Notes under the pieces: generated by a model
Told to the model about the DNA's origin: nothing
What the model saw: only the letters and a program-made list of their open reading frames with translations
The model's database searches: none
Made by a program: the position numbers and the translations under genes
Shown: in pieces, positions 2,521 to 26,115 of the stretch
Layout of the letters: each line of letters starts with the position of its first letter
Numbering within the stretch: position 1 is the first letter of the stretch
NCBI GenBank assembly: GCA_032718475.1
Contig: JAUCBJ010007629.1
Coordinates: 1 to 64,000, forward strand
Length of the DNA: 64,000 nucleotides
DNA from: Nemertoderma westbladi
Taxonomy: Eukaryota; Animalia; Xenacoelomorpha
Direction of reading: 5' to 3'

Positions 2521-5500
2521 TTACAGTAGGATATTGCAGGTATTGTTACCGTCTCTTCCGATAGTAGGAATAGGGTCTCGTTCGAATTCACGGTGTAATA
2601 AGATGTGATGTTTCGCGCCGCACTTTGCACACTTTACGTCGGAGTAACAGGTTCGCCGTTGGTGTCCTGGTCTGAGGCAATTATAGCATAACCGCTTATC
2701 CCACATGACTTCATGTCTGTCTACCAGGGATTTCAATAGGAATTCAGCACATGCACTCAAACGGTGGGTCCCGTCGCACAGCGCACAGTTTGGTTTGATG
2801 TTACTCACTTTACCTTGGGTAACGTTATGCACTCTCGTTCTTTCTTCGGGCTTTCTTCCATACCTTCTGTTAGGAGACTGAGGAGGAGTCTTGGCAACCT
2901 GTTCTCTCCTATCGTTGGTTCGAGCCTTGTATTTACTTACGTCTTTTGAGGTTTTGTTAACATAGTAAAATCTGTCAGTGTCTTTTCCGCTGTCCTCTTC
3001 CTGGGAAGCTTGGCTTTCGCCGTCGTCAGTGTAACACACTGGTGTTACTCTTCTCCTAGAAACGGGTTTCTCACTTACCTTATTTTCCGATGTTTTCTCT
3101 CTGGACTGCTTTATGAGTTGTAGTTTTACTTCACCATCTAAGAAGGACATGAGATCAGCCATGGTAGGGCCTCGTCGTTGCTGCTCATTCATATACAACA
3201 CTTTCTTGTCCCAGCGTGTACATACTCCACCCTTTGGTAAAGTAGAGAGTACGGCTCCAATAACCATGGAACTCTGATATTCATGAGACTTACCTAACCA
3301 GTCCAATTGTCTACAGATCTCCTGAATCTCATCGGAAAACTCTATAATCCCGCTACTAAGGAAGTTTCGGGGGGCTACTAATTTTGCATACAAATACTTA
3401 GCTATGTTATCCTTATTACCATACCTGGTGTTTAATGTATCCCAAACTTGTCTTAATCCATCTGGATGTCCAATAAACTTTAACACCATTAACTTGGGAG
3501 GTCCTTCCAAGCACTTGATGAGGAATCTAAGTTTCTCTCCGTTAGATAGTACAGAGTTCTGTATGCTATCTTTGTAATATTCATTGAAAGGTAACCATTT
3601 TATCTCATCTCCATTGAATTTGACGATCTCTCCCACTTTGACCGCTTGGCGGGCTTCTGTTCTAGCCATCTGACGCGTAAAGCTTTCTTGGGCCATCGTG
3701 TTATTTAATATCGAATTATCGGTATATAAATTTCTCGGATTATTATCAGGTCTATAGGGAATATCATTAACAACAGGTTTATAATCACCCTTAATAGGGT
3801 TTGCTATAGGAGTTTCTACTTCACTAGCAGTATAGATGCGTGTAGGCTCCACACCTTGCGCATGTAGTACTTCAGACCTAACAGGTTGACACAATGTTAC
3901 TGGGGGTATTGGTATACCCTTTTGTATATTGACTAATTTGTCGCGTTCTAGCGCGATGCTTTGCTGCACTTCTTGCAATTCTACCCTACTTTCCCTTACT
4001 GTTCCCTTAAGTTGGTTGACAGTCTCCTGCATCTGTCCGAGCAGGAGATTCATCCCCCGCCGTCCCTCCTCTACCCACTCAACCGCCGAAGCGGGAGTCG
4101 CCAACATTGTAGCGGGCTGACGCGGGACGACGGGAGACAAATCCTTGATTTCTCTCTCAGCGTCCAGGACAGGGATTTTCTCATGGACTGTTCTACCGGG
4201 TACAGGCAGTGTAGTACTGTGTAAAGGGAATTTAGAGTTAAGCTCTGGAAGTACAGGGGTCTCTAGCACAGGAGTGGCTTCGGGAACGACAGGCCTAATT
4301 ATTTCAGGCTCATCGACTATCGTAGGGAGTCTTTTGACCTTAATAATTTGGTCTGTGGGTTCTGTACTACCTAAGTCTGTGCTAGCTAGTTGTCTTCTAA
4401 CAGCTGGGGGCAAATCAGGCAATTTGTGACGGTGAGATGTTTTTCTACGCCTGCTTAGACGAGATCTATTTCCTCCGCCTTCAGGATCGGTGGTCTGGCC
4501 TTCCTCCGATGATGTGTATCCCTGGCGTTTGGGAGTAGATCGACTCATCATCTGCATTTGACTAGCAGTTAATTGCTTATTTATGTTGTCTTGCGTCTCT
4601 TGCAGATTTTCCAACTCCAGTTGGGTAGTCTCCTCAGACGCTCTCCGTTCTGCTTCTGCCACTGCCCTTGCCTCTGCTACTGCTGCTGCCTTTCGGTCCT
4701 CTATCCGTCTTTTCTTTACTTGTTCTTCCTGGACTCTAGTGAGGCGGAGTTTTTCATCAAATTTAGCTTGGTTTGCAGCTAACATTTCCGCATCGATTGA
4801 GTCCAACACAAGCTTGGCTCCTTCACTATTGGGGCGAAGTCCAGCCAGTCGTCTCCTCAACTCTTCATCACCTAAGAAGCGTTGATAGTCTGACAGATAG
4901 ATGTCGATGGCGTCTCTCGTTCACGGTCTCTCTGCTGTCACTTCACTTTCCACTTGAGAAAAGGTGGCATCGGTTGATTCTTCATAGGTTGGTCGCTCTG
5001 CCAGCTGGGATTTCCACTGGGCCGTTTCTTGTACTTTGAGACCTACCCGCTGGAACCAAGTCTTGACAGCAACTTGCAGCGACGTGTCCTGTCTTCTTTT
5101 GGAAGTTTCCTCAAAGGCTGATAGGATTAGCCTAATGCGTAGGGTTCTTTCGCGTACTTGATAAAGCAGCTCTTCCTGCTCTTGAGGTCCTTTGGGTTGT
5201 CGAAACAGTTGTTCTTCTAATCGCTCTAAGGAGCCGAAGAATCCCTGCACATATCCTGCTGCCGACCTCTTCCAAACAGCTGGATCCATCGTATCTTTAG
5301 TCACTCCCATCCTGTGTATGTCTTCCCAGGTAGCTTCAGATAAGTCTAACGGGAATCCGGGTCCGGAAAAGTTCCATTGCGACTCGACAATAGATATCAA
5401 TTCTTCCCTGGCGTATCCCGCATAACTATCTTGGGTCGCTCGCTTACTTCTCGCCCAATCGACTTGGTGTTCCTCCACCGCGATCAATATCGTAGTTAGT

Positions 5501-5868
5501 ACTGCGGCAGGAAGAGTGAGAAGGGGATCCGAATAGGCTGTATCCGCCATCTTCACTCTGCATTCGGGGGTCAGCTCTACAGTATCCGAACTACTGGAGC
5601 TGTCGGGTCGCTGGGAACGAGTTTCTGGACTAGGATGTTGCTGCTGTTGGACAACTGCTTCTTGGTTCCGTTTGACCTGGGCCCGAGTGCCGATGATAGA
5701 CCTACGGTGTTGGATTAGCCTAGGGTCTGATACTACTACTGGAGGGATGACCTTTCTTTCAGTAGGAGGTGAGCTGAACCCCTTTCTTAATCGCTCCACA
5801 CTCCTATCTGTGTCACAGATGGTTGTATCGATTAGACTGTCTGACAGGTTTTGCTCTGTGTCAGACAT
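2521..5868 (-). pseudogene. gag: Bel/Pao-type Gag (about 1115 codons) with one in-frame TGA at 4921-4923; no pol follows
   Basis: ORFs 4921-5868 and 2521-4860 share a frame (ERP*TRDAIDIY...). Capsid-region motif KFNGDEIKWLPF..EKLRFLIKCLEG and Bel/Pao triple Zn knuckle CALCDGTH..C / CYNCLRPGH..C / CAKCGAKHHILLH. Confidence 0.85.
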
Positions 5869-5947
5869 GTTTAGCTATACAGTTGAATGCTTACTGCTAT
5901 AGTTACAGTTAAAGCAAGTCTAGTAATTCAGTATGACCGTTGGCCTA

Positions 5948-6220
5948 GTACCGGTAATTTATTACAGTATATTAGAATACCGGTATACACTTATAATATA
6001 TATAAGTATTGTAAACTAGGTTTGTCTCAGAATACCGGTATATAATTTTAACACAAATATATATAAATATATAATAGGCCTATCGTGAATACCGGTATAC
6101 AGCCTACACTTATAGTATATAAGTATAATTCTGGACTAGAATTAATTACAGAATACCGGTATAATTTCAGCCTAAATTTATAGAAATAAAGATAATAGGC
6201 CTATCGTAAATACCGGTATA
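5948..6220. repeat. Degenerate tandem repeat, period about 58 bp, carrying the palindrome TACCGGTA
   Basis: AATACCGGTATA near 5977, 6031, 6088, 6152 and 6209, plus a weaker copy near 5949. Confidence 0.7.
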
Positions 6221-6342
6221 TCAATTATTTAAATAATTGAATTTCTGAATTTTAAAGGTTACTTAGTTACTTTAACTTACTTTATTACCGTTATTTAAGC
6301 AGTAGTCCAACTGATATTGAGACCTAATTGTTGTATGCAGGC

Positions 6343-7971
6343 TGTTCGCGGTATTTCAACTTTCCATAACGCGAGTTGAATATTTTTGTATTTATTTAAA
6401 ATTGATTATTCCGATATTACTACTGGGTGCGGGACCATGGGTTTTGGGCACATTCAATAAACTGGGGGCGATTTATGGGCGAACTTTGGGGCAACTTACA
6501 GGGTACGGGAATAATTTCATAGTTATAAGGGCCAGGGGGGATGGAAAATGCAAGCAGTATTCAGGTTAGCCTGAGTACTATTAGGCCCTGGCCAACTTCC
6601 TGCTGCCTGTAGGGGTGGATTTGGTAATGCGCCAGGCCTAAAGGACAAGGACTGCCCTTAGCGGTCCCTGGCCAACAGCAGCCATTACGAGACTGAAAAG
6701 AACTCGGACCGCTGACTGCTTGTGTCAGGGATTTGCGACGGGCACCGACGGCCCCTTAGTAGCCAAGCCGTTCTGGTTCTCGATGATCGAACCCCGGGGT
6801 TCGTGAGGGGTGGAGCGGACACGCGAACGGGTGGCCAACTAACGACTGCCCCCTGACCTAAGCCATACTGGTTCTCGATGACCGATCCCTTCGGGGTTCG
6901 TGAGGGGTGGGACGGACATGCGAAAGGGCTGGCCACAGGACGGGTTTGACGAGAACTGCCCTTAGCGGTCTCTGGTCAACGGCAGCTACTACGAGACTGA
7001 AAAGAACTCGGAACGCTGACTGCTTGTACTGGGATTTGCGACGGGAACCGACGACAGACCCCTTAGCCAAGCCGTACTGGTTCTCGATGATCGAACCCTT
7101 CGGGGTTCGTGAGGGGTGGAACGGACACGCGATGGGGTCGAAAGACAAAGGACTAGACTCGACTAGACTCTACTGGCCTACCGACTGTTCGGAGCAGTTT
7201 CTCGGCTGCCGAAGCGACTACGAGCCTGAAACGGACTCGGAAAGCCTAGGTGGTTGGGTTTCTGTGATGAACCGACGGACCCCTAGCCAAGCCGTTCTGG
7301 TTCTCGATGATCGAACCCTTCGGGGTTCGTGAGGGGTGGAACGGACACGCGAACGGGTCCACCGACACGACAGACTCCTAGCCAAACCGTACTGGTTCTC
7401 GATGACCGAACCCTTCGGGGTTCGAGAGGGGTGGTACGGATACGCGACAGAGTCTACCGACTGGACCGACCCTTAGCCAAGCCGTGCTGGTTCTCGATGA
7501 TCGTTCCCTTCGGGGTTCGTGAGGGGTGGAACGGACACGCGACAGGGTCGACCGACACCGACACTACGGCACTAAGACTGGGACCGAGGGAAAATCTGGG
7601 GAACATTAGGTAGGCTAAAATTCTGAGCGAACAGTGGGTTATTAAATAATATACCGTAGGGATTTATATTATCGTGTATAATTATTGTGAATATTTGGTG
7701 TATATTGATTTGGGGAAGCCCAAAATTATTCTTAATCAGGTTTCAATGATGTTGAACAGGTTTCAATGACGTTGAACAGGTTTCAACTATAGGAAGTTAC
7801 ATTAAAGAGTATATCCAACTAATGCAGCTTTTTATCAACCGCAAACTTGCATCTCAGAAAATATTCCCTCCCCACAATCAATATCCGGTGACTGGCCGGG
7901 GCTCGGTGGTCTGTTAAAGTCACGTCTCCAGCATCGGCGTTTTCCCCCCTGGTGTAGGGATAACGGCAACA
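6343..7971 (+). repeat. 5' LTR of element A
   Basis: TGTTCGCGG...GGCAACA; direct repeat of 19278-20906 with only about 4 substitutions seen by eye. Confidence 0.97.
6750..7550 (+). ncRNA. Array of six ~84-nt structured hairpins with kink-turn motif and cUUCGg cap (5' LTR)
   Basis: Copies near 6750, 6848, 7057, 7277, 7372, 7467; core CTC-GAT-GA-T-CGAACCC-TTCG-GGGTTCG-T-GA-GGG; outer stems vary compensatorily. The repeat is certain, RNA function is inferred. Confidence 0.7.
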
Positions 7972-8075
7972 AAATTAAGAATAATTCACGTGGTTAATTT
8001 TGACAGGGTGTCAAAATTAAGAATAATTCATGCGGTTAATTTTGACAGGGTGTCAAAATTAAGGATAATTACGGT
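7970..8075 (+). repeat. 42-bp tandem repeat (about 2.5 copies) with palindrome TTAATTTTGACA-GGG-TGTCAAAATTAA, at the PBS position
   Basis: CAAAATTAAG at 7970, 8012 and 8054; no TGG-initiated tRNA complement directly after the LTR. Confidence 0.8.
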
Positions 8076-8264
8076 CAACTTCAACTGGTGGAAGTTGAGA
8101 ATCCTTCAATACTCTTCAAAAACTCTCTACGTGCTTGCCAGCACCCACTACGAGGAAACTCTGGTATTTGAGTTGAGACAAAGTCGTGGTTTAATTAAGC
8201 AACAAACTCGATCTAACCAACTCGTAGTCGGCAGATCACATATTTGGAGAGTTGTTAACAGGGA

Positions 8265-8456
8265 ATGGAAGTATCGATCACACCCATTGATATAATTCAA
8301 GTTGAGCCAGGAATCTGGCACGTCGAAGTTGAGGTACAAGGAACGAACGTTGGACGATTCAGGATTACTGTTCGGGTGGTCCAAGCTGAGTACAATACCT
8401 ACGAGGAACTGTTTTACGACATCGCGTATCTAGCCATCGACGAGGCGTTACAATGA
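8265..8456 (+). CDS. 63-aa upstream ORF overlapping the gag start through ATGA
   Basis: Stop TGA 8454-8456 overlaps gag ATG 8453-8455; protein-like beta-strand then helix pattern; no recognised homology. Confidence 0.4.
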   Translation: MEVSITPIDIIQVEPGIWHVEVEVQGTNVGRFRITVRVVQAEYNTYEELFYDIAYLAIDEALQ

Positions 8457-11400
8457 CAACAAATAACGTATCCGATACCGACGAGATGGATCACCACACA
8501 GACTCGGAAGCCGACGAGGTACCAAACGTCAAGAACATGACCCGTCGGTTAGGGGCTCTTAAAGGCGGAGTAACCCGAGCATATCAACGGATGGAGAAAC
8601 AACTCAAGGGAGTCAAAACCCCCCTCAATGAGGTACAAACTCAGCTTCAAAGTATCCGAAATATCCTACAGCGGTACGAAAGAATGATACAGGCGTACCA
8701 AGAGCTCATTCCCCCCACCGATCAGGAAAACTACCCCAAGTTGGAAGAACACGTTGTACATCTAGATGGGTTCCGCAAACAACACCGGAGGACCCTCAGC
8801 CTTGTGAGAGGCTATGAGGAACAGTATTACAAGAGGGCTGACGCGGAATCAGTACGATCCTCCAGCATCAGGACAGCAGTACATCGTAAGAGAACGGGGT
8901 CCGCTAGAAATCAGCACTCCAGCGCTAGGAGCGAGATATCCGGCTCGGCGCGCAGTTCTCAAGGGGCGCCGCCACTCCGAGACCAACTGCGAGAACGGAA
9001 GGCATTAGCCCTCAAAGCTCGGATGGAAGATGAGTATATTCAACTGCAAGCCGAGCAAGATGTATTAGCCGCCGAAACACAAAAGCGAGAGGCCGAACAA
9101 GCGGCCGAACGGCAGGCCGAACAACGCGAACAGGAGGCCGAACAACATAGACGAGAGGCCGAACGGCAGGCCGAACAACGTGAACAGGAGGCCGAACAAC
9201 ATAGACGAGAGGCCGAACGGCAGGCCGAACAACGTGAACGACAGGCCGAACAACATAGACGAGAGGCCGAACGGCAGGCCGAACAACATAGGCGAGAGGC
9301 CGAACAACAGGCCGAACAACGCAAACAGGAGGCCGAACAACATAGACGGGAGGACGAACGACAGGCCGAACAACGCAAACAGGAGGCCGAACAACGCGGA
9401 CGAGAGGCCGAACGAGAGATCGAACAACGTAAATGGGAAGCGGAAATGCGTAAACAACACGCCGAGGCCCAAGCAATTCTCATCCACAAAAAGAATGCGG
9501 ATATTGCAAAACTCGCAGAATACGAAGCCGCACTTATCGAACGAGATATTCAACTCTACGAGGACTGGGAAAGGGATATAGATCAGGAATATGAACCAAT
9601 TCCGGTACCGGAGTTAGAAAAGTCATTTACACCAACAGCGGCGAAACCTCCGAAACCCGAGATCCCGCCTACCAAACAGTCTACGCTATCGGCACAAGCT
9701 CCGGTGTTTCATCCCCCACCGGCTACGCTAAAGAATGAGGAACCCTATTTCCCATCCAATACCACGACAGCGAGTGTACCCAAGTACGAGCCTGAAAAGG
9801 ACTCGGAACGGGATGCCACTCCCCGATCAAACAACCCATTTACATCAACACCACAAACTCGCAGCCGCGTCATTATTAAAACTCCGCCTATTATTGATCC
9901 ATCAAGTATGGGAGTGAGTGCCAATAACTATAACCCTCCGAGTCACTCCAGTTCAGACGACGTCAGCATCATCCGGGCGTTGGAGAACCGCCTTGCCATG
10001 CCGAAGATGGAGATTCGCACCTTCGAAGGAGATCCCGTCGATTATCTCAGATTCAAGAAACGGTTTTTTGCGCAGATTGGATCAACGGACATAGCCGACG
10101 CACAGAAATTGGTATATTTATCGCAATACCTGGGTGACAAACCACGCAGAATTGTTGCATGTTTTGAAGGAGGTTCTCATGAGGCATACTATGACGCATG
10201 GAAAACTCTAGACAAAAGATACGGAAATACCGGAACTATAATTAATAAAACTCTAGAGAGACTGATACAGGACGCGGGATCACTAGGGGACCCACAGAAC
10301 ATACAGGAATTCTCCGACTCTATGAAAGATGCCTATTATACTCTGAAACCCTTAAATAAGGAGGACCAGGTGAACAACATTCTAAACCTCCGACAGATCG
10401 CCCGGAAGTTCCCCGGATGGCTGCAAAGTAAGTGGGCCTATAAATGCGTAGATCTCCGGCGCAGACATCCAGATCAAGATCCCAGCTTCCTCGAAATGTC
10501 GGCATTCCTGGACGATATCTCCGAAGCCATGAATGACTCAATGTTCTCGAAACAAAGTCTCGCCAAGTTGGACGCAATGGAGAGCAATTACCAGAGCAGG
10601 GCACCCACTCCAAACCCAAGATTCCGCCCTACTCCTGTGAGTGCGATGGTCATCAGTATGGCTGAGGACTCGGATGACGAGGATTACGAGGAACCGACCT
10701 TAGCAGAAGAATGGGCATGCTACCTAGCGAATTGGGCACCCGAAAGGGAAGGCACCACAGCCTCCCCTATATGTCTCTTCTGTGGGGAGAAACACAAAGT
10801 GGAATTCTGCAGAAAGTTTCAGTTCGCCGAACTCGTCCCATGCTTCGAGGCGATAATGAAACACCGAGGATGCTTCCGGTGTCTTGGAACAGGTCACTAT
10901 GTTCGGGAGTGCGACCAAAGATCATGCTGTGCTGTCTGTAACGACCAACGCCATCACACGCTCCTCCACATCCCCGCGAACTTCGATTTTACTACCCTCC
11001 CCTTTCGGATCGAAGCCAGGCGACGAGGAGAAACAAACCACGTCTTCAAAGGAACCCGGACAACCCAACGGAGAGAAACCAACCCGTTTAAAATCTACAC
11101 CGATACACCACAAGTAACCAATATTTCGGCCACGATTAATCTTATAAATCGCCGCTACATGGTCTTCGCAAAGGTGATCCCAGTAAGGATCCAAGGAGTC
11201 GGCAAATCTTTGACGACACTCGCGTTCCTCGATAACGGGTCCGACGGAACCATCATCGACCGGGATTTCCTCGAGCAACTCGGCCTAGAATATGAACCTT
11301 GTAAACGGCCCATACAAACCATCACCGATAACAAAGAAGTAGAGTCCGGGGAGGTGCAACTCCAGATGGAAGGAGTGATGAAGGGCTACGAAACGGCTAA

Positions 11401-11632
11401 GTTAACCATCAAGAACGCCTTGGTACACACAGACCTCCGGGTGCGGTTCCGACAATCAGCCGAGTACGCCCCCCTCATACAATTGGACCGAGACGATGTA
11501 GACCTGAGGTGTCCGCAGTTGGATGTGAACCGTATCACCCTACTGATCGGACTTGATACACCGGAACTACACATCCCCACCGGAGATATCGCTCGATCTA
11601 TAAACCAGGATGATGGATTTTATGCTGAATGA
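8453..11632 (+). CDS. gag: Bel/Pao Gag-protease part of the polyprotein
   Basis: PKMEIRTFEGDPVDY capsid region, triple Zn knuckle (CLFCGEKH, CFRCLGTGH, CAVCNDQRHHTLLH), aspartic protease LDNGS. Ends at an in-frame TGA inside the conserved A-x-x-T-x-x-GW motif (YAE*TIMGW). Confidence 0.93.
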   Translation: MTTNNVSDTDEMDHHTDSEADEVPNVKNMTRRLGALKGGVTRAYQRMEKQLKGVKTPLNEVQTQLQSIRNILQRYERMIQAYQELIPPTDQENYPKLEEHVVHLDGFRKQHRRTLSLVRGYEEQYYKRADAESVRSSSIRTAVHRKRTGSARNQHSSARSEISGSARSSQGAPPLRDQLRERKALALKARMEDEYIQLQAEQDVLAAETQKREAEQAAERQAEQREQEAEQHRREAERQAEQREQEAEQHRREAERQAEQRERQAEQHRREAERQAEQHRREAEQQAEQRKQEAEQHRREDERQAEQRKQEAEQRGREAEREIEQRKWEAEMRKQHAEAQAILIHKKNADIAKLAEYEAALIERDIQLYEDWERDIDQEYEPIPVPELEKSFTPTAAKPPKPEIPPTKQSTLSAQAPVFHPPPATLKNEEPYFPSNTTTASVPKYEPEKDSERDATPRSNNPFTSTPQTRSRVIIKTPPIIDPSSMGVSANNYNPPSHSSSDDVSIIRALENRLAMPKMEIRTFEGDPVDYLRFKKRFFAQIGSTDIADAQKLVYLSQYLGDKPRRIVACFEGGSHEAYYDAWKTLDKRYGNTGTIINKTLERLIQDAGSLGDPQNIQEFSDSMKDAYYTLKPLNKEDQVNNILNLRQIARKFPGWLQSKWAYKCVDLRRRHPDQDPSFLEMSAFLDDISEAMNDSMFSKQSLAKLDAMESNYQSRAPTPNPRFRPTPVSAMVISMAEDSDDEDYEEPTLAEEWACYLANWAPEREGTTASPICLFCGEKHKVEFCRKFQFAELVPCFEAIMKHRGCFRCLGTGHYVRECDQRSCCAVCNDQRHHTLLHIPANFDFTTLPFRIEARRRGETNHVFKGTRTTQRRETNPFKIYTDTPQVTNISATINLINRRYMVFAKVIPVRIQGVGKSLTTLAFLDNGSDGTIIDRDFLEQLGLEYEPCKRPIQTITDNKEVESGEVQLQMEGVMKGYETAKLTIKNALVHTDLRVRFRQSAEYAPLIQLDRDDVDLRCPQLDVNRITLLIGLDTPELHIPTGDIARSINQDDGFYAE
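9088..9440 (+). repeat. Coding tandem repeat (EAERQAEQ/EAEQHRR coiled coil) in Gag
   Basis: Many GAGGCCGAAC/CAGGCCGAAC units; explains the overlapping low-complexity ORFs. Confidence 0.9.
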
Positions 11633-11638
11633 ACAATA

Positions 11639-14600
11639 ATGGGATGGACACTCTGCGGCATTAAGGAGGAAACTACGGACACCTATACCTACCTTCCTAA
11701 ATGTCAGATTAAAGAGAATGTAACCTCTGTGGGTTATTGCTCAGCTTCGGATCTTGACGAGGATTTGTTCCTGGAAACCGAGAAAACCCAACGAGAGATG
11801 ACGAAATATTTTAATTTGGAGACCCAGGAGTTCGCGGAAAAGGACGAAAACCCATCCGAAGAGGACCAATATTGTATGGACGTTCTCGACCAGGCCACGT
11901 TTAAAGACGGACATTGGTGTTCACATGTTATGGAAGGACCCAAACAAACCAATGGCAAACAACGCCAGCATGGCACTTAGGCGACTTAAAGGGATTCTAC
12001 GCCGGCTGAATGACCAACCCGAGATAAAGGAGAAGTATAACACCGTAATCCAAGGATATCTCGATGATGGATTAGCAGAAATGGTACCACGGAACGAACT
12101 GCAAGGTGGTAAAAGAACATATTATCTCCCGACCCACTATGTAGTAGAAGCCCGCAAAGGCGGGAAAATCCGAGTGGTAAATGATGCTGCCGCTATGTAC
12201 CAGGGCGAATCCCTAAACAGTCAACTTTATACGGGACCCAACATATATAGCACACTCATCGGCGTATTGATCAGGTTCAGGGAAAACCGGGTAGCATTCA
12301 CCTGTGACATCAAGGCCATGTTTCATCAAGTTCGTACATTACCAAGAGACTCGGACTGTCTACGTATCCTATGGACGGATAAAACGCTTACTCAACAGGA
12401 GATTAGCCAACTCACGATAAAGGACGTAGACATAATGCGTATGGTCGTCAGGATCTTCGGCGCTAAGGACTCGCCGGTAGCATGCAGTGACATGCTAAAG
12501 AGGACGGCAACCATGTGCGAAAACGAGTTCCCTCCAACCGTCATAGAAACCATTCGACGATGCTTCTACGTGGACGACGGATGCGCCGGCGCGGATAATG
12601 TAGATGAGGCGTATCAGCTAGCAATGGGGATGGTAGAATGTCTAAAGAAAGGAGGGTTTCCACTCGTGAAGTTCAGATCCCACGACAAAACACTTATGGA
12701 AAAGTTTCCGGAGGACATCCGGCTGGAAAATAACAAGATGTATTCGGAGGATGTGGAACATCGTGTACTCGGGATTGAATGGGACATAGAATCAGATGAA
12801 TTCATCTTCAAATATAAACCCCTACCCAAGCCTATGACAAAAAGGGGATGTTTGTCGATAAAAAGTGCAATCTTCGACCCACTAAATTTCATATCTCCGG
12901 TAACCTTGGCCGGAATGAACCTGATTAAGGAAATGTGGATAGAAGGACTGGGATGGGACAAAGAGCTTCCCCCATACCTTAGCGTCAAATGGAGAAAATG
13001 GACGGAGCAGCTCGAACACCTACATCTTATGCGGATACCTAGACCGTTCTTCCTCGATAAACTGCCCACCGATATCTTCCAGCTCCACACCTTTTCGGAT
13101 GCTTCAAATACCGGAATCGGCGTAGTAACCTTCTTACGGAGACTAAGTAGCGATGGAAACGGCGATACAAGCTTCTTATTCTCCAAAGCAAAGACAGTAT
13201 CCGGGGAATTCGTAGCAACGATTCCGAGACTCGAGCTACAAGCTGCAGTTTGGGCAGTAAGACAGAATCGCATGGCCATGCGGAACCTACGGATCCCCAT
13301 AGAATCTCAACACTTCTGGGTAGATTCGAGTATAGTTCTCTATTATCTCCACTCTCCATCACGGCGTCACACCACGTTTGTTGCAAACCGAGCCACAGAG
13401 ATTAAACAGTGTACCGGCCGAGAACAGTGGCATCACGTGAACGGGAAGGAAAACCCAGCGGACTTATCAAGCCGAGGCGCCACCCCAAAACAACTCGGTA
13501 AAAGTAAACTCTGGTTTACAGGCCCGGAATTCCTACGGCAGCCACAGTTAACATGGAGTACCCGATTCGACCCCGAACTCGATAGTGGAAAATACTCCGA
13601 GGACGATAAAGAGATCCGTAAAATCCATCGAAGCAACGCGGTGGAAATTTATAGTTGCCTGACTGAGCCTGCAAAGGACTCGGGCAGGCACTATAACGTC
13701 GCGACGATCACTCAACTAGCGGCGTCTTTACATCGGTTGATCGAGCGAACTTCATCCATGAGACGGCTCGTCCACCACGTTATAACCCTTCGTAACTTCC
13801 TACGGTGGAAAAACAGCAAACCGATAGTTCAACGGAATATACAAGAACTTATTATCGCGGAGAAGTGTATTGTTAGATATGTCCAGAAAGAAAGTTTCCC
13901 CGATGAATGGGAACAACTTAGTGCGGGCAAAACATTGAAACCGGACAGCCCAGTCTACCAACTGAGACCAATGATAGGAGAGGACGGACTGATCCGACTG
14001 AATACCCGGATGGCAAACGCCCCGGTCGAATATGAGGTTAAATACCCGGCGCTTCTGCCCGGAACGTCGACACTAGCTAAGCTATTAATTCTACAATGTC
14101 ACGAGGACAACCACCACGCAGGACAGAATTGGATTATAGCTAATATAAGACAAAGATATTGGATCACCCACATCCAGCCACTGATCCGGAAAGTGTTGAA
14201 ACGTTGCTTCACCTGCAGACGTTACCTAGCGCCACCAATCACCCAAAAGATGGCCGACTTACCAGCCACCCGTCTACAAGCGGATTCCCAACCATTCTAC
14301 GTCACCGGAGTGGACTGTTTCGGACCGTTCACGGTTATTGAACGACGATCCAACATCAAATGCTGGGGAGCCATCTTCACCTGCCTAAGGTCTAGGGCAA
14401 TTTACTTAGATATCGTGGTAAATCTGACACAACACGCATTCATCAAAGCTCTGCGTCGGTTCGTGGCGAACAACGGGACATGCTGCCACATGTATTCCGA
14501 TAATGGTACAAACTTTGTGGGAGGAGAAAGAGAACTTAGAGAGGCGATCGAAGGATGGTTTACCGATAACACTGCATCCCAAGCCTGGAAGGAACACCAG

Positions 14601-15272
14601 ATACAGTGGCACTTCCAGACCCCCTTAGCACCCCATACGAGCGGGGTATGGGAGAAACTGATCGACCTAGTGAAACGATCCATGCGCGTCGCTCTAGGCG
14701 ATACCCGGGTAACCCATGACACCCTCCGCACAACATTCTGCGAGATCACGGCTACCCTGAACAACCGACCCATTGTTCCTATCCGCGACGACCCCACAGA
14801 CCTGGAACCCCTCACTCCTAACCACTTACTGGGGAGACCTAAAACCCACCTCCTCCCGGAAACCATGTTCCCGGATCCCAACGAGATCGCGAAACATACA
14901 AACTGGAAAAAGGCCCAAGCGTTAGCAGCGCATTGGTGGAGAATTTGGACCCAGGAGTACCTCATAACCCTCCGGACCAGGAGGAAATGGAACAACACCT
15001 ACCGGAATGTCGCAGTTGGTGACATGGTACTAGTTAAAGAAGATCTCAAAGACCGCATTCACTGGCCTGTGGCGCGGGTCGTGACCATACACCCAAGCAA
15101 AGACGGACTTGCAAGGACTGTGACGATACGAACGGCAAAGGGCCACTACCAACGCCCTATCCAGAGGCTGTGCCTTCTCGAAGGCAATGATAGCGGTGAC
15201 TCTACGAGAGGTGATAAGATCCCTACTCAAGATCCTGCTGTGGACATTGGTGACAATTACAAACCCGTGTAA
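11639..15272 (+). CDS. pol: Bel/Pao Pol (RT, RNase H, integrase), frameshifted near 11920
   Basis: RT DIKAMFHQ and FYVDD; RNase H FSDAS, IPRLEL, NPADLSSRG; integrase H..HH..CFTC, GVDCFGP, SDNGTNF, WEKL. ORF 11639-11980 is in the gag frame, ORF 11925-15272 in a shifted frame. Confidence 0.93.
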
Positions 15273-15552
15273 CCCTTCTCATCATGTTGACAAACTCTTT
15301 TTAAACTGTGATTTATCGACAACGAATTATGGACCCCCTTTAAACCAACTGTAACCACGCAATGGTATTTGTGTTTCCTCGTGTGTTATGTGGAGTCCAG
15401 CGTCACCCTGCGGATGTTTCGACTGACGCAGGGTCGTTTATGTATTGTTTACCCTGATTTTGGTCATTGGGACCAACGATATTGGATTATTTAGAAATGG
15501 AAAAGATTTGAAGTGGAATTCATTGTATTCATTGCAGTATGTTATGTTGTCC

Positions 15553-15962
15553 GTTGCGTGCGCAGTTCGGGGCGTAGGCGGTGTAACGAGTCCAGCTGTA
15601 GATCCCGGATTGCCGCGCAACACCCCCTCTATCCCGTTATTCTGGTGGGTCCATGGTGCATCCACATGACTTCGACGATAGAGGGTTTTATGTTCTCAGT
15701 CGCGTTATTCTGTTGGGACCGTTGCGTGGATTTTGGGGCGTAGGCGGTGTAACGAGTCCAGCTGTAGATCCCAGAATGTTGCGTAACCCCATCCCACATG
15801 ACTTCGTCGACTGAGCTTTATGTTGTTGGGAGTGTTATTCTGGTGGGTCCCTGGTGCATCCACGTGACTTCACTCCCAGCGTCTTCATTGTCCGTTACGT
15901 GCGCAGTTTGGGGCGTAGGCGGTGTAACGAGTCCAGCTGTAGATCCCAGATTGCCGCGTAAC
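15553..15962 (+). ncRNA. Three ~68-nt structured repeats downstream of pol with an invariant 38-nt core
   Basis: GGGGCGTAGGCGGTGTAACGAGTCCAGCTGTAGATCCC inside copies 15553-15621, 15721-15787, 15894-15962; flanking stems covary. Confidence 0.6.
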
Positions 15963-16521
15963 ACCCCTTCCACGACAAAGATTAACCAAAGAAAATGATT
16001 GAATATAGTTGGAAACGATGAAAAGGATCAGACAACTCTACTATAAACCTGAATGATGACGCGTATACTGATGAAAATGTAATGATGCGCACCTTGGTGC
16101 TGCGCTTATAACAAATGATGATAGCCGGGGGGCTATAAACCCAATGATGATGTGGAAATAAATAAATAAATGTGAAATAAATGGTGGAACTAAATGTTGA
16201 AATATATGTGGAAATAAATGAAATGAGATGAAATAATAATGAAATGAAAAAAGACAAAAAAAAGGTATAAAAGAGGTCAAAGAAAAGAATTGGAAAAAAA
16301 AGGACAAAAAAGTCATAAAAAACTGGTTGGATATTATGTATAGCTATAGTAACTGTAAATGCTGAATGTATTAGCAATAAGATGATAGATGCCTATATAG
16401 CAATGTTATTTAATAAACTGAATTAAATAAAAAAAACTGAATTATTCTGCTATCGCTATAGTTTCAGACTTTCTGGACTTATAATTAACTGAACTAATTT
16501 GTAACGGATATAATCGTAAAT

Positions 16522-17847
16522 ATGGACCTAAATCGCCAAATTATCGGCGAATTACGTAACACGTTAGATCTACTGGAATATTCGCAACCCGGATCCCCTG
16601 ACTTTGATACAAATTGGAGCACCCTGCTAAATGAGAACGTGCGAGTCATGAAATTCACCGGGCGAGAGGGACCGGATTCTAAGAATCTACGAGCCCTCCG
16701 GTTAGCCGATGCTAGTACGAGACTGAAAAGAACTCGGAACGCAAAGGCAACCGGAGGGGACGATTCGTCGTTTTGGGAAACGTTCCGGCAGAGCGTCTAC
16801 AGATCCCGATGTTTGATCTACGACAACGAGGGAAACGCGACGCCCACATCGAAAGCGATTACGTTGGCGAGATGTCAAAGTTTCGTCGACGACAAGAGTA
16901 CGTACCTCGCCCACTGGGGAAACCTGTCGGAGTGTACGGCGACGCTTCGAGAGGAACGCATATCGATTATCCAGAACCGCGATGACTACCAGGAAAAGTA
17001 CGGGGCGAAAGAATATGGTCGATCCTTAGTCGTCGTCCTCGGAACCCTGGACGGTTTGGTACTGGTGTGCCGAATATTCCCGACACCCAGACAGGAAGTG
17101 CAGGCAGCCGGAGCGATCTGGTTGCTGCCTCCGGAAATCCAAAAGATCCTCTTCGACTTCGACGTCATTAAAATCGGGTCGGATATCAAGGCGGACGTCC
17201 GGAACGACTACGCGAACGCTCCTACAGGAAGAAACCGACGAGACGACCTCAACGCCCTTAGCCATTGCATCGACACTCAAACGTTACTAGCCTGGTTACG
17301 ATTCGCCGAGTTCATGCGAGGATTCCAAGAGGTGAGACCGACGAAATCCGGGATCGGCTACCTCGCTGTGCTAAACGGCGGTATCGACTTCAAACCCCAG
17401 AAATTCCGGGACTATAATAAAATATACGGTGGATACCCGGGATTGGAAATAAAGAGCGAGCGAGAGGGTCGATGGAAGGACGTTGATCGGAAGTGGACGA
17501 TACACCAAAGATGGGAGAATCCCGATCGACGGAACTATGTTTACGTCGTTATGGAATGCTACACCGTCGCTAAGTTTATCTGTAAAACTCTCGATAACCT
17601 TATTACGGCGGTCCCCCTTTCCTTCGTCGACTACGACTGGAACGAGGTTATAAACCACACGTTTAAAGCGGTCGAGAACATTACACCGGGAGAATCGAAA
17701 ACACCCGCCGTTATCGATTCCTGGGACGAGAGCGGACCTTACGACATCCCTACGATTACCGAACTTCTCGGTGCGGAGGAGCCTCTGATCTCTTCGGAAG
17801 GGGAAGAGACGAGGGTGTTCTACTCTCCACCCCGAAGCGACAACTAG
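16522..17847 (+). CDS. Accessory protein N-terminal part: DEDDy/DnaQ-like 3'-5' exonuclease-like domain (WRN/EXD/Mut-7 type)
   Basis: ExoI-like LIYDNEG; VLGTLDGLVLVCRI; LPPEIQKILFDFDVIKIGSDIKAD (ExoII-like); CIDTQTL; SGIGYL; YVVMEC (ExoIII-like with E). Motif recognition only. Confidence 0.65.
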   Translation: MDLNRQIIGELRNTLDLLEYSQPGSPDFDTNWSTLLNENVRVMKFTGREGPDSKNLRALRLADASTRLKRTRNAKATGGDDSSFWETFRQSVYRSRCLIYDNEGNATPTSKAITLARCQSFVDDKSTYLAHWGNLSECTATLREERISIIQNRDDYQEKYGAKEYGRSLVVVLGTLDGLVLVCRIFPTPRQEVQAAGAIWLLPPEIQKILFDFDVIKIGSDIKADVRNDYANAPTGRNRRDDLNALSHCIDTQTLLAWLRFAEFMRGFQEVRPTKSGIGYLAVLNGGIDFKPQKFRDYNKIYGGYPGLEIKSEREGRWKDVDRKWTIHQRWENPDRRNYVYVVMECYTVAKFICKTLDNLITAVPLSFVDYDWNEVINHTFKAVENITPGESKTPAVIDSWDESGPYDIPTITELLGAEEPLISSEGEETRVFYSPPRSDN

Positions 17848-17900
17848 AGCCGGAGGCCGCGTATGGACCGGCCGCCAAACGGGTTGCCTCGACCGAACCG

Positions 17901-19112
17901 ATGAAGAGAGCAGGCGTTTACACTCCACGCGGCTCCGGTAGCCCCGCGAGGGAGGTGGCTACTACAGCTGCATTGAGCGACTTCGGCGACATATGCCAAC
18001 GGTTATCCCCGTATCCTTTCCCGGGTGGCGAAGATTGGTCGTCGGAGATTCCGAGTACCAGCCACCAACGGACCCGCGCAGCGATACTGATCGAGGAGGG
18101 CCCCAGCGACGCGCCGACCCCCGACGATCTCCTCGGTATCCCTCCGTCGAAAACCCCGGCACCCCTTCGCCGACCAGCGGTGGCTACTGCACCCGCCGTT
18201 CCTCAGGACCCTATGCGACTAACCCGTTGGTACGCCGAGCAAACTGAATGGATCCACCGCCAGAAACGGTCATCCGAGTTGAGACCAGCGGGACACAAAG
18301 AGGGTTATCGGAGCGAGAACATACTACGCAAAAGCCTAGCATTCCGCGGGCTACCGACCACCGAGAATATTCCGAAGAGCGACCGATGACTCGAATACTA
18401 CGTCGGCGTCCCGATTCCAATATTCCCCGGTCGAGAAACGCAGTTGGAGGTATGCGACGACTGCGGCTCGGAGCAGTGCCCACGCGGCAGAAGGAATCGG
18501 GTTACCGATTCTTGCCTCCAGCTCCTCGGGGTACTCTATTGCCCATACTGCGCGATATCGGGCCACGACGTTTCGGTCTGTCCGATCCTTTATAACCTAT
18601 GCACCACGTGCGGTTTCCGTGGACATTCCGCTAGCCCCCGCTGCTATATCAAATGTCCTACCAAAGACGTAACCGCTATGGGCAATATGGTCATGTTTGA
18701 GACATACACAAACAGCCACTTAAAGACCAAGTTTCGGAGAAACGCTCGGAATATCGCGCAGGAGATGGCGTGCGGATATTTCTCCTTCCCGGAACGCCTC
18801 CACACGTCGGCCACGCTACCTTTCCATTACGTGGATCTGCTACTGAGCGCTGGATTATTCGGCCCATTCGAAGTCATTAGACGATTATACTCGTATAAAG
18901 AGGAGTTCGGTGACGGAGAATGGTTCCTAGAGGCACGCAACTCCGAGTTGGAAAGACGAACCGACATGATCCCGATGCCTTCGAAAGGAAGAGCCGCCAG
19001 GAGACAAGCCGAAGCGTTACTCACAATGGATTTTGACGCTCCTCTACCAGCCATAGCGATCGATGAGAGTCGACGGGCGAAGAGACGAAAGGCGTACCAG
19101 AAAAAGAAATAG
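17901..19112 (+). pseudogene. Accessory protein C-terminal part: Pro-rich linker and tandem CCHC Zn knuckles, in-frame TGA at 18387-18389
   Basis: 17901-18389 and 18444-19112 share a frame; GRETQLEVCDDCG..C, CPYCAISGH..VCPILYNLCTTCGFRGH..C; colinear homolog in element C. Confidence 0.7.
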
Positions 19113-19277
19113 TGGATTGGGATATTCCAGGAACATTTATCGAACATTTATTTTTATACAAACTCTAGGCCAAATTAATTAAAAACTATGCAATATTAAA
19201 TTTGGGTTTTTTATATTGGGAATGACCTACGCAAACTCAATCGACCGACAGACTTCACGAAGGTCATTGGGGGGGAC

Positions 19278-20906
19278 TGTTCGCGGTATTTCAACTTTCC
19301 ATAACGCGAGTTGAATATTTTTGTATTTATTTAAAATTGATTATTCCGATATTACTACTGGGTGCGGGACCATGGGTTTTGGGCACATTCAATAAACTGG
19401 GGGCGATTTATGGGCGAACTTTGGGGCAACTTACAGGGTACGGGAATAATTTCATAGTTATAAGGGCCAGGGGGGATGGAAAATGCAAGCAGTATTCAGG
19501 TTAGCCTGAGTACTATTAGGCCCTGGCCAACTTCCTGCTGCCTGTAGGGGTGGATTTGGTAATGCGCCAGGCCTAAAGGACAAGGACTGCCCTTAGCGGT
19601 CCCTGGCCAACAGCAGCCATTACGAGACTGAAAAGAACTCGGACCGCTGACTGCTTGTGTCAGGGATTTGCGACGGGCACCGACGGCCCCTTAGTAGCCA
19701 AGCCGTTCTGGTTCTCGATGATCGAACCCCGGGGTTCGTGAGGGGTGGAGCGGACACGCGAACGGGTGGCCAACTAACGACTGCCCCCTGACCTAAGCCG
19801 TACTGGTTCTCGATGACCGATCCCTTCGGGGTTCGTGAGGGGTGGGACGGACATGCGAAAGGGCTGGCCACAGGACGGGTTTGACGAGAACTGCCCTTAG
19901 CGGTCTCTGGTCAACGGCAGCTACTACGAGACTGAAAAGAACTCGGAACGCTGACTGCTTGTACTGGGATTTGCGACGGGAACCGACGACAGACCCCTTA
20001 GCCAAGCCGTACTGGTTCTCGATGATCGAACCCTTCGGGGTTCGTGAGGGGTGGAAAGGACACGCGATGGGGTCGAAAGACAAAGGACTAGACTCGACTA
20101 GACTCTACTGGCCTACCGACTGTTCGGAGCAGTTTCTCGGCTGCCGAAGCGACTACGAGCCTGAAACGGACTCGGAAAGCCTAGGTGGTTGGGTTTCTGT
20201 GATGAACCGCCGGACCCCTAGCCAAGCCGTTCTGGTTCTCGATGATCGAACCCTTCGGGGTTCGTGAGGGGTGGAACGGACACGCGAACGGGTCCACCGA
20301 CACGACAGACTCCTAGCCAAGCCGTACTGGTTCTCGATGACCGAACCCTTCGGGGTTCGAGAGGGGTGGTACGGATACGCGACAGAGTCTACCGACTGGA
20401 CCGACCCTTAGCCAAGCCGTGCTGGTTCTCGATGATCGTTCCCTTCGGGGTTCGTGAGGGGTGGAACGGACACGCGACAGGGTCGACCGACACCGACACT
20501 ACGGCACTAAGACTGGGACCGAGGGAAAATCTGGGGAACATTAGGTAGGCTAAAATTCTGAGCGAACAGTGGGTTATTAAATAATATACCGTAGGGATTT
20601 ATATTATCGTGTATAATTATTGTGAATATTTGGTGTATATTGATTTGGGGAAGCCCAAAATTATTCTTAATCAGGTTTCAATGATGTTGAACAGGTTTCA
20701 ATGACGTTGAACAGGTTTCAACTATAGGAAGTTACATTAAAGAGTATATCCAACTAATGCAGCTTTTTATCAACCGCAAACTTGCATCTCAGAAAATATT
20801 CCCTCCCCACAATCAATATCCGGTGACTGGCCGGGGCTCGGTGGTCTGTTAAAGTCACGTCTCCAGCATCGGCGTTTTCCCCCCTGGTGTAGGGATAACG
20901 GCAACA
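19278..20906 (+). repeat. 3' LTR of element A (hairpin array at about 19685-20485)
   Basis: Direct repeat of 6343-7971, preceded by G-run PPT and followed by TSD CAGGC. Confidence 0.97.
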
Positions 20907-23556
20907 CAGGCCTACTATTTATAAATCGTTTGAGTTGATTTATAATATATATATACCCGTTTAAAATGGGTTTTGTCAATATTTGAAATAAATGTTATTA
21001 TTTCTGGGGGGAGTCACTACACAGAAGCTGTGCGCTCTCAGTGAAGTGCTACTTATTGGACACTAAAACAGATAATTCTAATTTACCTAAGTTACTTAAT
21101 ACTACAAATTACGTACGATACGGGTGAGATTAATTCTCTAATTAAAACACAACAAAATATTACGTACGAAATTTTAGGGTAATTTTACAGGAAGTCTACA
21201 AACCAGCCTAACAAAGGGTTAGAATTCTGGTTATTACAACGGACAGGGTACTACGGTATTTGAAAATAATAAGTAGTAGTAAATATGTTGCGCTGTCCAG
21301 ATAGGAAAAATACCACCGTCTGACGACCTATAGCCGTATCGCTATAGGTACTACGTTATGTATCACAGAGTGTTCCTACCTGGAAGTTAATTACCGCGGA
21401 CTACCAGATCCAACGTGCCTATTAACCACTTTACAACACAATACACTGCCTACACACTAATTACTTTTGGAAAGCACTGTACACCAAACCCTAAATTAGG
21501 TACAAGTACTTATTAAAAACAGATAACTAGCAGTTAAATATACTTGAACAGTTAAAAGAACCACGGCATCTGCTGGAGTGACCGGAGCACAAAGTTACCA
21601 GTCTTTACCTACGCCAAGCAGCCCGTGTAGTACCGGGGTTAATTTAACTATAACGGTATGTGTAACAAGCACAATTACTGTAGGAATAAACTTGGGGACA
21701 TGAATGTTGCGAATAATCGCATAAACTCTGAATAATAAATATTACGCTACCCGTACAGAATACTCAAACAAAATACAAACCAAACGCTGGCAGACTACCA
21801 TCAAGCCTAAATAAACTACAGTATGTGCAGATTCCGAAATGGTTAGTTAGTATGCGTTCTAACACAGTAGTACGACTTATTCTTTAGGAGGGGGTTGACC
21901 TTACAACTCAAGATGCCCCAACTTACTAACTGGCACTTTATCGGACAGACTCTACACACGCCGCAATCTCTCCAGACCCAACAACAGCCAGACAACAATC
22001 CAGCCTACAATTATCTGAACAATCTGAGCAGACTTACACGTCTTCTGCTCAATATTAACTTACATGTAAATAAAACCGACAGAAATAAGTAAAATCTCAA
22101 TAAAAAACCAGGGCGGCCGTTCCCTGATTAAGTACTAAGACCTACCGGTGTACAATAATCAAAATCGAATAATACTAATGTACTTATACTGGAAGTACCG
22201 GTTAGGACAGTTGGGCCTACAGACCTACACCAGTACCGATTCTGGCAGTTGGGCCTACGGACCTACAGCAGTACCGGTTCAGGTTTACCGGTCGACCGGT
22301 ACTTTCAACTTTATTGCTTACTGCAATAAAGAAGATAACTGTTATTGTACGCGCTTTTGAAGAGCTTTAGCAGTTTAACCTGCCAAAATTTATATGTCTT
22401 TTGGTTTATAAATAGACTTTAACATATGACAAGTATTTAATACCAATAAACACAACATTAGCCGAAGCCAGCCTAGTGCGCGTCCATTCACCCGCTGGAT
22501 ATACCCGGGAGACTGGATTCGGAGGGCTTAGATTTTATTGCAGTATAACCTTACTGTATTATTCGATTGATCGTTAATAAATAATTTCTGACTAATATTA
22601 TTCACTTTCGGGAAATATTAACAGTTCCTTTAGGACGTGGCGCTCTATCTAGGTAAACAGAGAAATGACTTATACTAAACACAACGGTAAGACGGTAAGG
22701 CTTATGATTCACGTATGAGGCGCATTCTTTAGGAAATGCTTAGTTATCAGCCACAATCATGCACACTACCGGTACCGCACAATACTGCACACTAATCTGC
22801 CGACCGTCAATGAATTTTATCATACATAAAGAGAACAGCAATTGACTCATGTAGTGCCTATCAAATAGCATTAAATTCACTACAAACCACGATAATATAA
22901 GTCGCAATCGCTATATGTAACCTGTCTCTCTAACCTGTAGTGTATCAAGAAAATTGGGAAATTTGGGTTATTTATTGATGTTCTCCAAGTAATAATATTC
23001 AACCAACTGATACAAATAATGACAACAGTAAATAGCATTAAGACGGTAGGTTAAGATATGATATGTGTAACACTGATAATGCAGCACTGATACGCTGATT
23101 GAACTGGACTGATAACAGTTATACGTTCTATAATCTAAGCCTACTAATGTTTCTTCTAAAGTCTGAAAACAATTGACTCCAGAGCCGGTGTTCTTGGCCT
23201 AGAAGCAACAACACAACAGTAACAAGAAAACTATAAGACTGAACACGCCTAGTACCATGTAGAATGTCTCCACGTCTAAGGTAAAAATCGCTCTGATTGG
23301 CTGTTAAGCTGAACAAAGAACCATGTGTCCAACGGCCGTTTCCATGCCAGCAACCAGCTGTTGGATGTTGTAATCTGAATCATCAAGGCTACACTGTGCT
23401 AGAGGATTTGACGCATTGCGGGTTTTGTGTCTTGCCATGTCCGCCAAAGCACACATATAGAAAAACAACTTTTATGTCCGTTAAAACACCCACACGGTAC
23501 TTTGCGGGCAAGGGGACTGATTATATCCGCAAAAGCTTTTACAATAATAATAATAA

Positions 23557-24237
23557 ATGGCTGACTTTAATTCAGGTCCATATAATTTAAACTTTCAAAT
23601 GGGAACGATTATGATAATTTCTGGCCCATCTGGTTCTGGAAAATCAACGTTTGTGGGGAATTTAATTAAACACAAGAATGGTTGTTTCAACGAAGCCCCC
23701 ATGCGAGTATTGTATTGTTACGGGAGCAATCCCCCGACTATTCCCGGTATTACTCACCTTTACAAAGGTTTGCCAGAAAATATAGATAGTTTAGTGAATA
23801 GTCGAGATTTATTAATTATAGATGATTTATTAACAGAAACTGAGTCCAGTACAGCTTTAACTGTATTGTTTACTAAGGTAGCTCATCATTCCAATATATT
23901 TATTTGTTTTATAACGCAAAACATGTTTTACGGTGGGAAGCATAACCGCACAAGATCAATTAATAGCCATCCCTTAGTAATAATGAAAAATCCGCGAGAC
24001 AGTCTATCGGTTTTAAATTTCGCGAAGCAGATGTTACCAGGGCAGACCAAATTTTTAGTAGATTCCTATCAAGATGCGACAATTGAACCATTTTCGCATT
24101 TCTTAATTGATTTACGACAGGAAACACCCGAACATTTAAGATTTAGATCGGATATATTTCGTAATCATAATTGTTACATTAAAAATTACATTGACTATAA
24201 ACGTAGCGAAAATAATAATAATAATAATGATAAATAA
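23557..24237 (+). CDS. A32/FtsK-like DNA packaging ATPase
   Basis: Walker A GPSGSGKST, Walker B LLIIDDL, HHSN..ITQN, KNPRD. Confidence 0.92.
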   Translation: MADFNSGPYNLNFQMGTIMIISGPSGSGKSTFVGNLIKHKNGCFNEAPMRVLYCYGSNPPTIPGITHLYKGLPENIDSLVNSRDLLIIDDLLTETESSTALTVLFTKVAHHSNIFICFITQNMFYGGKHNRTRSINSHPLVIMKNPRDSLSVLNFAKQMLPGQTKFLVDSYQDATIEPFSHFLIDLRQETPEHLRFRSDIFRNHNCYIKNYIDYKRSENNNNNNDK

Positions 24238-24274
24238 TTAATATTTTGTAACAATTTTCAATAATGTTGCAACA

Positions 24275-25206: not shown

Positions 25207-25259
25207 ATTAATTAATTTTAGCGGAGGTCGCACTGTTATAACACTTAAGTTAATACGCG

Positions 25260-26114: not shown

Positions 26115-26115
26115 A

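Follow-up and report, generated by a model that had tools for sequence, protein, structure and literature searches.

A Bel/Pao-lineage retrotransposon of Nemertoderma westbladi with a likely self-primer, an exonuclease-like third gene and repeated RNA hairpins

A 64,000-nucleotide stretch of Nemertoderma westbladi DNA (contig JAUCBJ010007629.1, positions 1 to 64,000; the window) contains a 14.6-kb long terminal repeat (LTR) retrotransposon of the Bel/Pao lineage, element A (6343-20906, + strand, as are all of its features), in which the 5' end of the element's own RNA likely serves as the primer for reverse transcription. This self-priming, deduced from sequence complementarity, is the best-supported point of our analysis. 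The wider reading that we favor, at a probability of roughly 0.55, is that of a self-primed Bel/Pao element whose third open reading frame (ORF3) encodes a noncatalytic RNA-binding protein and whose repeated hairpins are protein-binding sites on its own RNA; what was seen directly is how the element is built, its complementarity to its own LTR, its repeats and the family to which the ORF3 protein belongs. Two other elements of the window, B and C, are used for comparison.

Instead of the 18-nt site for a host tRNA primer that belongs to the Belpaoviridae, element A has a self-complementary sequence behind its 5' LTR. No TGG is present within 19 nt of this LTR (a tRNA site was judged by a TGG near the LTR end). 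The original prediction had seen no obvious tRNA primer-binding site, which is borne out, but had missed that the primer-binding position at 7974-7986, 2 nt past the LTR end, is complementary to the LTR. Indeed, the predicted self-primer at 7724-7736 is its exact reverse complement (13/13). Copies of the primer site were found at 8016-8028 and, in part, near 8058. The region 7972-8075 is built from a duplicated primer-site unit with a period of 42 nt; a CA stands before the second copy as well, and there is a hairpin in each unit. Element B has no TGG site either, and its LTR stretch at 42817-42828 is complementary (12/12) to 43080-43091, directly past the LTR end at 43079 (+ strand). The primer letters differ between the two elements, and the B pol is only ~35% identical to the A pol. 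In PMC6317226, a self-primer is defined by at least 10 bp of complementarity to the LTR, starting 0 to 5 nt after it; both A (13 nt) and B (12 nt) fall within this definition.

How often such matches arise otherwise was addressed with null sequences and a scan of the window. Self-match nulls gave 1/300 for each element by helix length and 0.027 (A) and 0.037 (B) by energy with matched G+C. The window-wide scan returned 23 matches at 7,592 CA sites. Most of these lie in palindromic repeats; the two LTR ends that were testable are both matches. An initiator-like A, at 7728 in element A, is the predicted RNA start and leaves a 9-base primer in both elements, 244 (A) and 262 (B) nt from the LTR end. 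In the predicted leader fold, the 9 primer bases were paired with a probability of 0.75 to 0.91 in A (longer leader) and of 0.83 to 0.94 in B. Transcription of element A would thus start near 7724-7728, and the first 9 to 13 bases of the RNA would pair with 7974-7986 and then be released by RNase H, as in Tf1. If the RNA starts at 7724-7728, the LTR arrays at 6686-7562 would be U3 sequence that is transcribed only from the 3' LTR. The earlier idea that the hairpin arrays take part in primer formation gives way to a better explanation, the LTR-to-leader complementarity outside the arrays. A primer built by splicing was rejected for element A: it had 5 bases and 58 of 60 nulls were equally good, and the A primer is contiguous.

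Of 18 Bel/Pao loci (L001 to L018) fetched in one scan, the 8 with a definable 5' LTR end were counted and 10 were excluded. These loci sit in contigs of bacterial genome bins and are most likely host DNA. Three of the eight have a TGG site and self-matches that are not significant (energy P, 0.24 to 0.52); they come from one bin and include two near-copies. The other five have no TGG and show contiguous self-matches of 7 to 9 standard pairs (P, 0.05 to 0.45), with energy P values of 0.017, 0.037, 0.06, 0.28 and 0.70. In three of these five, an 11-base match lies across a GT..AG junction: the 11 bases past the 5' LTR match the junction over an LTR intron in L003 (1001-1770), L004 (1001-1862) and the LTR of L007, with 1, 0 and 0 of 60 nulls, respectively; L003 and L004 are close kin. 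An unrooted reverse transcriptase tree of 35 rows (L016 was too short, and neither an outgroup nor named clades were included) placed seven TGG-less elements on one side of a branch with support of 100/99, with elements A and B as long branches. Priming without tRNA thus looks like a trait of a wider Bel/Pao branch, and an independent one from ORF3, of which a homologue was found in 0 of the 18 loci. Two unrelated families and several relatives point to tRNA-free priming with a primer that is either contiguous or splice built; if this is true, such elements would presumably lie beyond the reach of control by tRNA fragments.

Element A is a recently inserted, broken copy of a multicopy Bel/Pao-lineage retrotransposon. 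The 5' LTR (6343-7971, TG...CA, 1,629 bp) and the 3' LTR (19278-20906) differ by 4 mismatches over 1,629 bp, the target-site duplication CAGGC (5 bp) is present at 6338-6342 and again at 20907-20911, and a polypurine tract with 7 G (19269-19275), as in Belpaoviridae, lies 2 nt 5' of the 3' LTR. The motif ATTAAA at 7801-7806, and at 20736 in the 3' LTR, is a candidate poly(A) signal. The gag-pro-pol region of the Bel/Pao type (8453-15272) has Pfam matches to DUF1759, an aspartyl protease, Peptidase_A17, Integrase_H2C2 and DUF5641, in addition to YVDD, integrase motifs and three gag knuckles, and the order of protease, reverse transcriptase, RNase H and integrase with Pao-type domains between LTRs is that of the Belpaoviridae. 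In this copy a stop at 11630-11632 interrupts it, and the frame shifts near 11920. Among the 120 matches listed, all with PF05380, Bel/Pao polyproteins were at most 42% identical to the A pol. With its Pao domains, the polyprotein is not that of a Ty3/gypsy chromovirus. Lacking a tRNA site, element A is filed as a variant of the Bel/Pao lineage and not as a typical member. This anatomy had been described correctly from the letters of the sequence: one young element with an ORF after pol, RNA motifs and no obvious tRNA primer-binding site. Within gag, 9046-9519 is a 12/21/33-nt tandem repeat that codes for a charged E/R/Q-rich stretch.

ORF3 (16522-19112) is an ORF of its own that follows pol and precedes the 3' LTR. 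In this copy its frame shifts near 17810, and a stop interrupts it at 18387-18389. ORF3 is preceded by an A-rich linker (16157-16431) with seven AATAAA motifs, compared with one in the upstream 7.3 kb, and by a candidate splice acceptor (16462-16467) 3' of this linker; the roles of the linker, its motifs and the acceptor are putative. The predicted product consists of an exonuclease-like domain (about 17000-17590), a low-complexity linker, Cys/His knuckles (about 18450-18645) and a conserved C-terminal block. An unindexed search of 1.84 billion proteins revealed three relatives (P0121, P0122 and P0123), all singletons, whereas word-indexed searches with ORF3 returned nothing or P0121 alone (itself). 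Scans of viral and metagenome contigs for the ORF3 locus were empty, as was a scan of viral contigs for the pol locus. Because P0121 (648 amino acids) matches the N-terminal and the knuckle domains of ORF3 in one ORF (E = 1e-10), the pieces in element A are taken as one gene. A profile of the three relatives found element C with an E value of 3e-14, and its alignment to A begins past the first acidic motif; the score of element A in this profile is partly circular, A having selected those relatives. The link between A and C needs the profile, as direct BLASTP of their exonuclease parts was not significant. The five-sequence family profile matched EXD2 with an E value of 0.0024 and gave a weak match to Egalitarian (E = 0.46), and Atlas leads for ORF3 were PF01612. 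The ORF3 family thus appears to be rare and to combine an EXD2/Egalitarian-like exonuclease fold with Cys/His knuckles. That the accessory protein has both domains was correct in the original prediction; its exonuclease part is assigned by remote homology only, with an unrecognizable first motif.

The catalytic residues differ among these proteins. P0121 to P0123 keep the D-x-E of the first motif and the acidic residue of the third. Element A has no D-x-E at the aligned first motif, but the Asp of the second motif is present, as is a Glu close to the third, so that the four intact acidic residues of the rotifer-type DEDDy proteins are not all found; element C lacks the first motif, which would fall at its junction. 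Of the host proteins, Exd1 has no activity, and Egalitarian can bind stem-loop localization signals, among them the one in the I factor, independently of its catalytic residues (10.1101/2025.08.03.668247). For these reasons an RNA-binding role is the likeliest, and ORF3 is probably a captured, noncatalytic RNA-binding protein.

Three kinds of structured repeats, named K, G and S, are present in element A. The original prediction had listed six kink-turn hairpins per LTR, a dispersed GNRA hairpin and three structured repeats 5' of the accessory ORF, and all of them were recovered. K hairpins 1 to 6 of the 5' LTR (6753-6846, 6848-6943, 7057-7152, 7277-7371, 7372-7466 and 7467-7562, in the predicted U3) have the kink-turn (k-turn) consensus and a UUCG loop, which is shortened in the first copy. 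The canonical (C) stem, the 3-nt bulge and the tandem G.A/A.G pairs are present in 6/6 copies and the noncanonical (NC) stem is weakened in 2; G at -1n and C-G at position 4 were found in 6/6 and U.U at 3b:3n in 4/6. In a strict scan (at least 4 stem pairs), four of the six passed, whereas 200 shuffled LTRs averaged 0.035 and never had more than 1, and a single K unit gave a strict match in 0.3% of 2,000 shuffles; being duplicates, the six copies are not independent. All six K hairpins and all three G hairpins are present again in the 3' LTR, the predicted 3' untranslated region of the RNA.

The G hairpin, a GAAA-capped stem above an ANUA/GA(A/C) internal loop, has three cores in the 5' LTR (starting at 6686, 6990 and 7219, within 6686-7242), one in gag (9785-9808) and one in ORF3 (16716-16739), the latter in a frame that differs from that of the gag copy. 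Its fixed letters are kept in 21/21 positions at four of the five distinct sites and in 20/21 at the fifth, and all five copies still fold with their differing flanks (z, -1.7 to -5.2). The internal loop appears to resemble the sarcin-ricin/loop E module. A weak sixth G-like hairpin with a GCAA loop is present in pol (13665-13681; E = 0.16). Three S hairpins with an invariant apical core lie 5' of ORF3 (15547-15629, 15713-15795 and 15888-15970). In 12 of the 14 motif copies, the + strand folded more stably than the - strand. Since G is read in two different frames and is also present in the LTR, the motifs look selected as nucleic acid, and the arrays probably function as sites on the RNA. Transcription of the K hairpins and of the G hairpins in the LTR would be from the 3' LTR only. 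The K hairpins would bind a host protein of the L7Ae family (15.5K/Snu13) and stabilize the 3' end of the RNA, and the five G hairpins along the genomic RNA would be the best candidates for a site bound by Gag or ORF3 that serves packaging, export or localization; ORF3 need not be the partner.

Known RNA classes did not account for the motifs. Rfam gave no match over 6000-21200 at E values up to 5, and two chance-level rows for B and C, and readings as box C/D small nucleolar RNA (snoRNA) or as ribozymes (hammerhead retrozyme, hepatitis delta virus, twister) were dropped. K was also considered as an H/ACA-like RNA, but by eye its spacing does not fit. A scan of metagenome contigs for the K motif was empty. 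Three motif strings were absent from the supplement files of PMC3118150 that were searched, in which the element sequences may be incomplete, so that this amounts to no catalogue check.

Elements B and C show whether the protein travels with the motifs. As had been claimed from the sequence, C has the protein: homologues of both ORF3 domains lie in a broken gene at 53489-55650 (- strand; exonuclease-like domain, 55649-55137; knuckles, 54232-53807). An Exo_endo_phos ORF like that of a long interspersed nuclear element runs in frame into the C exonuclease-like domain (54456-57005, - strand), probably at a deletion or insertion junction. Likewise, B lacks a TGG site and has an array (68 nt, four times) 3' of pol; it has no ORF3 and no K, G or S. 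The LTRs of B and C (51895-52160, +, and 52695-52954, -) have in common a multihairpin block that is 77% identical; 6 of 61 predicted pairs are changed on both sides, one hairpin is GNRA capped like G, and Rfam gave no match to the block beyond the two rows mentioned. The proposal of a single element-encoded ribonucleoprotein module finds no support in co-occurrence, with ORF3 but no motifs in C and neither in B. The three elements neither show nor exclude a pairing specific to each family, and a fixed unit of protein plus motifs is unsupported. RNA protection or localization is reasonable as a putative role.

A number of observations weigh against the favored reading. The RNA start of element A is a prediction only, a shorter leader left its first four primer bases paired at only about 0.2, and two TGG-less relatives, L008 and L009, had neither a significant contiguous nor a significant spliced match. 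No Pfam family passed for ORF3, both of its structure predictions were poor (predicted local distance difference test scores of 34 and 37; the best fold match of the latter model was EXD2, nonsignificant at E = 0.038), the loss of the first motif in A comes from a 5-sequence alignment in a poorly aligned stretch, and no listed contig joins pol to ORF3 in other copies. K copies 1, 2 and 6 folded no better than shuffles (z, -0.8, +1.2 and +0.15), and covariation among the repeats was not above shuffles for K (63/500) and G (104/500) and was modest for S (14/500). The K and G models matched element A alone in the window plus the 18 loci (237,484 bases), without conservation across families, and C has the ORF3 homologue without K, G or S.

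The nearest rival holds that ORF3 binds the element's own hairpins and that protein and motifs evolve as a unit for RNA protection, transport or evasion of small RNAs. ORF3 has knuckles next to a fold whose family is known to bind stem-loops (Egalitarian, Exd1; 10.1101/2025.08.03.668247), G lies inside the ORF3 coding sequence and in the 3' region common to any ORF3 message, and each family could have its own site, because the LTR block of B and C differs and yet has a related GNRA-capped hairpin. However, C has ORF3 without the motifs of A, B has the LTR block of C without ORF3, K fits the consensus for a host protein and binding by ORF3 is putative, so that we regard this explanation as rather unlikely. 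A bolder version of our own, in which a Bel/Pao branch dropped tRNA priming, an Egalitarian/Exd1-like element protein reads G in the manner of Rev and its response element (RRE), and six k-turns recruit 15.5K to shield the 3' end, is unlikely as well.

If the repeats were instead ordinary U3 duplications that act as DNA enhancers or are products of neutral slippage, the hairpins would be incidental and ORF3 unrelated cargo. The arrays do precede the predicted promoter, in a region that tends to gather enhancers (PMC3601003), covariation is weak and Rfam is silent, but neither the full k-turn consensus with UUCG loops, nor a G that is preserved exactly in two coding frames (with a chance of about 3e-9 per copy) and still forms helices with differing flanks, nor the strand bias of folding would be expected, which makes this explanation improbable. 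We consider it very improbable that ORF3 has 3'-5' exonuclease activity and serves to trim the self-primer, the 3' end of the RNA or host PIWI-interacting RNAs while the hairpins shield the element's own RNA. Residues at the first and third motifs are kept in P0121 to P0123 and at the second and near the third in A, and 3'-end processing was proposed for rotifer ORF3s (PMC5408684), but the D-x-E is absent from the aligned first motif of A, and B and the relatives appear to self-prime without an ORF3.

Further copies of element A were sought in sequencing runs. Six listed runs from 4 studies carry all or part of the stretch, one of them possibly the source of the window itself. None of the listed runs is an RNA run, which has no bearing on expression. 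In the DNA-labeled runs X1 and X3, 16,508 and 7,224 contigs lie on element A and cover 30/30 bins, including ORF3, so that many divergent copies exist; contig depth is not equal to copy number. Where the ORF3 frame changes, other copies differ from this one, which makes programmed recoding there unlikely. Neither of the two stops appeared in the best 40 of 911 difference rows or the best 12 of 63 length rows, and neither did the change of frame in pol. Within 7972-20906, transitions separate nearly all contigs from this copy at many of the 40 positions listed, despite the near-identical LTRs; an already mutated template may have been copied, or the runs may stem from another population. In run X4, summed contig depth at 15300-16430, over the S repeats, is far above both flanks, and an A-rich loose end behind 16264 is followed by seven AATAAA, as at an internal RNA end or in a separate repeat. 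The insertion site of element A lies upstream of a second Bel/Pao gag (DUF1759; 2521-5874, - strand, continuing beyond 20911). At 23557-36424, a P-loop ATPase, an adenovirus-type protease and an ORF with a match to TBP (30244-30834; E = 3e-8) form a gene set that we take to be Polinton-like.

The profile of the International Committee on Taxonomy of Viruses (ICTV) gives Bel/Pao elements an 18-nt tRNA site, LTRs of 0.2 to 1.2 kb, genomes of 4.2 to 10 kb, at most an env-like third gene, and a replication that is tRNA primed and poorly understood (PMC8742986). Element A is like the Belpaoviridae in its LTRs, its protease-reverse transcriptase-RNase H-integrase gag-pol, its polypurine tract and its Pao-specific Pfam domains, and unlike them in having no tRNA site, LTRs of 1.63 kb, a length of 14.6 kb and an exonuclease-like ORF3. 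In Tf1, the first 11 RNA bases pair with the primer site and are freed by RNase H, as shown experimentally (PMC7175516), and self-priming has been described for the Tf1/sushi group and the plant Tcn1 and TAR lineages (PMC7175516, PMC4600332, PMC6317226). As in these, the primer site of element A is complementary to its own LTR and lies directly past the 5' LTR; unlike these, which are Ty3/gypsy or copia elements, element A is Bel/Pao, with a predicted primer of 9 to 13 bases. It would thus work like Tf1 without being a member of the Tf1/sushi group.

The K hairpins resemble the 15.5K-bound box C/D and U4 k-turns, in which tandem G.A pairs stand beside a 3-nt bulge with the standard -1n G (PMC5579392), in these features and in the U.U at 3b:3n of 4/6 copies, and differ from them in forming an LTR hairpin array, in matching no snoRNA family and in the C-G at position 4 in 6/6. 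EXD2, Egalitarian and Exd1 are the nearest solved relatives of the ORF3 domain, and remote ones at the E values given above; they are host genes, whereas ORF3 is element encoded, and Egalitarian keeps its acidic tetrad. In the accessible literature (including PMC3118150, PMC554778, PMC2996953, PMC3601003, PMC5443660, PMC6934838 and PMC13524379), neither self-priming nor an exonuclease ORF3 nor k-turn arrays were found described for Bel/Pao; a description could exist in subscription journals, in Repbase, Dfam or GyDB, or in other supplements. The novelty that the original prediction had put forward as unverified is narrowed, since DEDDy ORF3s, which it did not cite, are known from the rotifer LTR retrotransposons Juno and Vesta (PMC5408684) and also from Terminons (PMC6431247). 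Like Juno and Vesta, element A has a third gene of putative function between pol and the 3' LTR, and its product is a candidate DEDDy-type exonuclease-fold protein. Those elements belong to other lineages and have intact catalytic residues (DEED), whereas in element A the first motif is unrecognizable and a knuckle domain is added, and the accessible text of PMC5408684 mentions neither RNA arrays nor self-priming for Juno, Vesta or Terminons. DEDDy ORF3s in rotifers and self-priming in Tf1 are thus known separately, and neither was found described for Bel/Pao in the literature searched; together, short testable RNA motifs and a rare exonuclease-knuckle family offer a handle on what DEDDy ORF3s do for retroelements.

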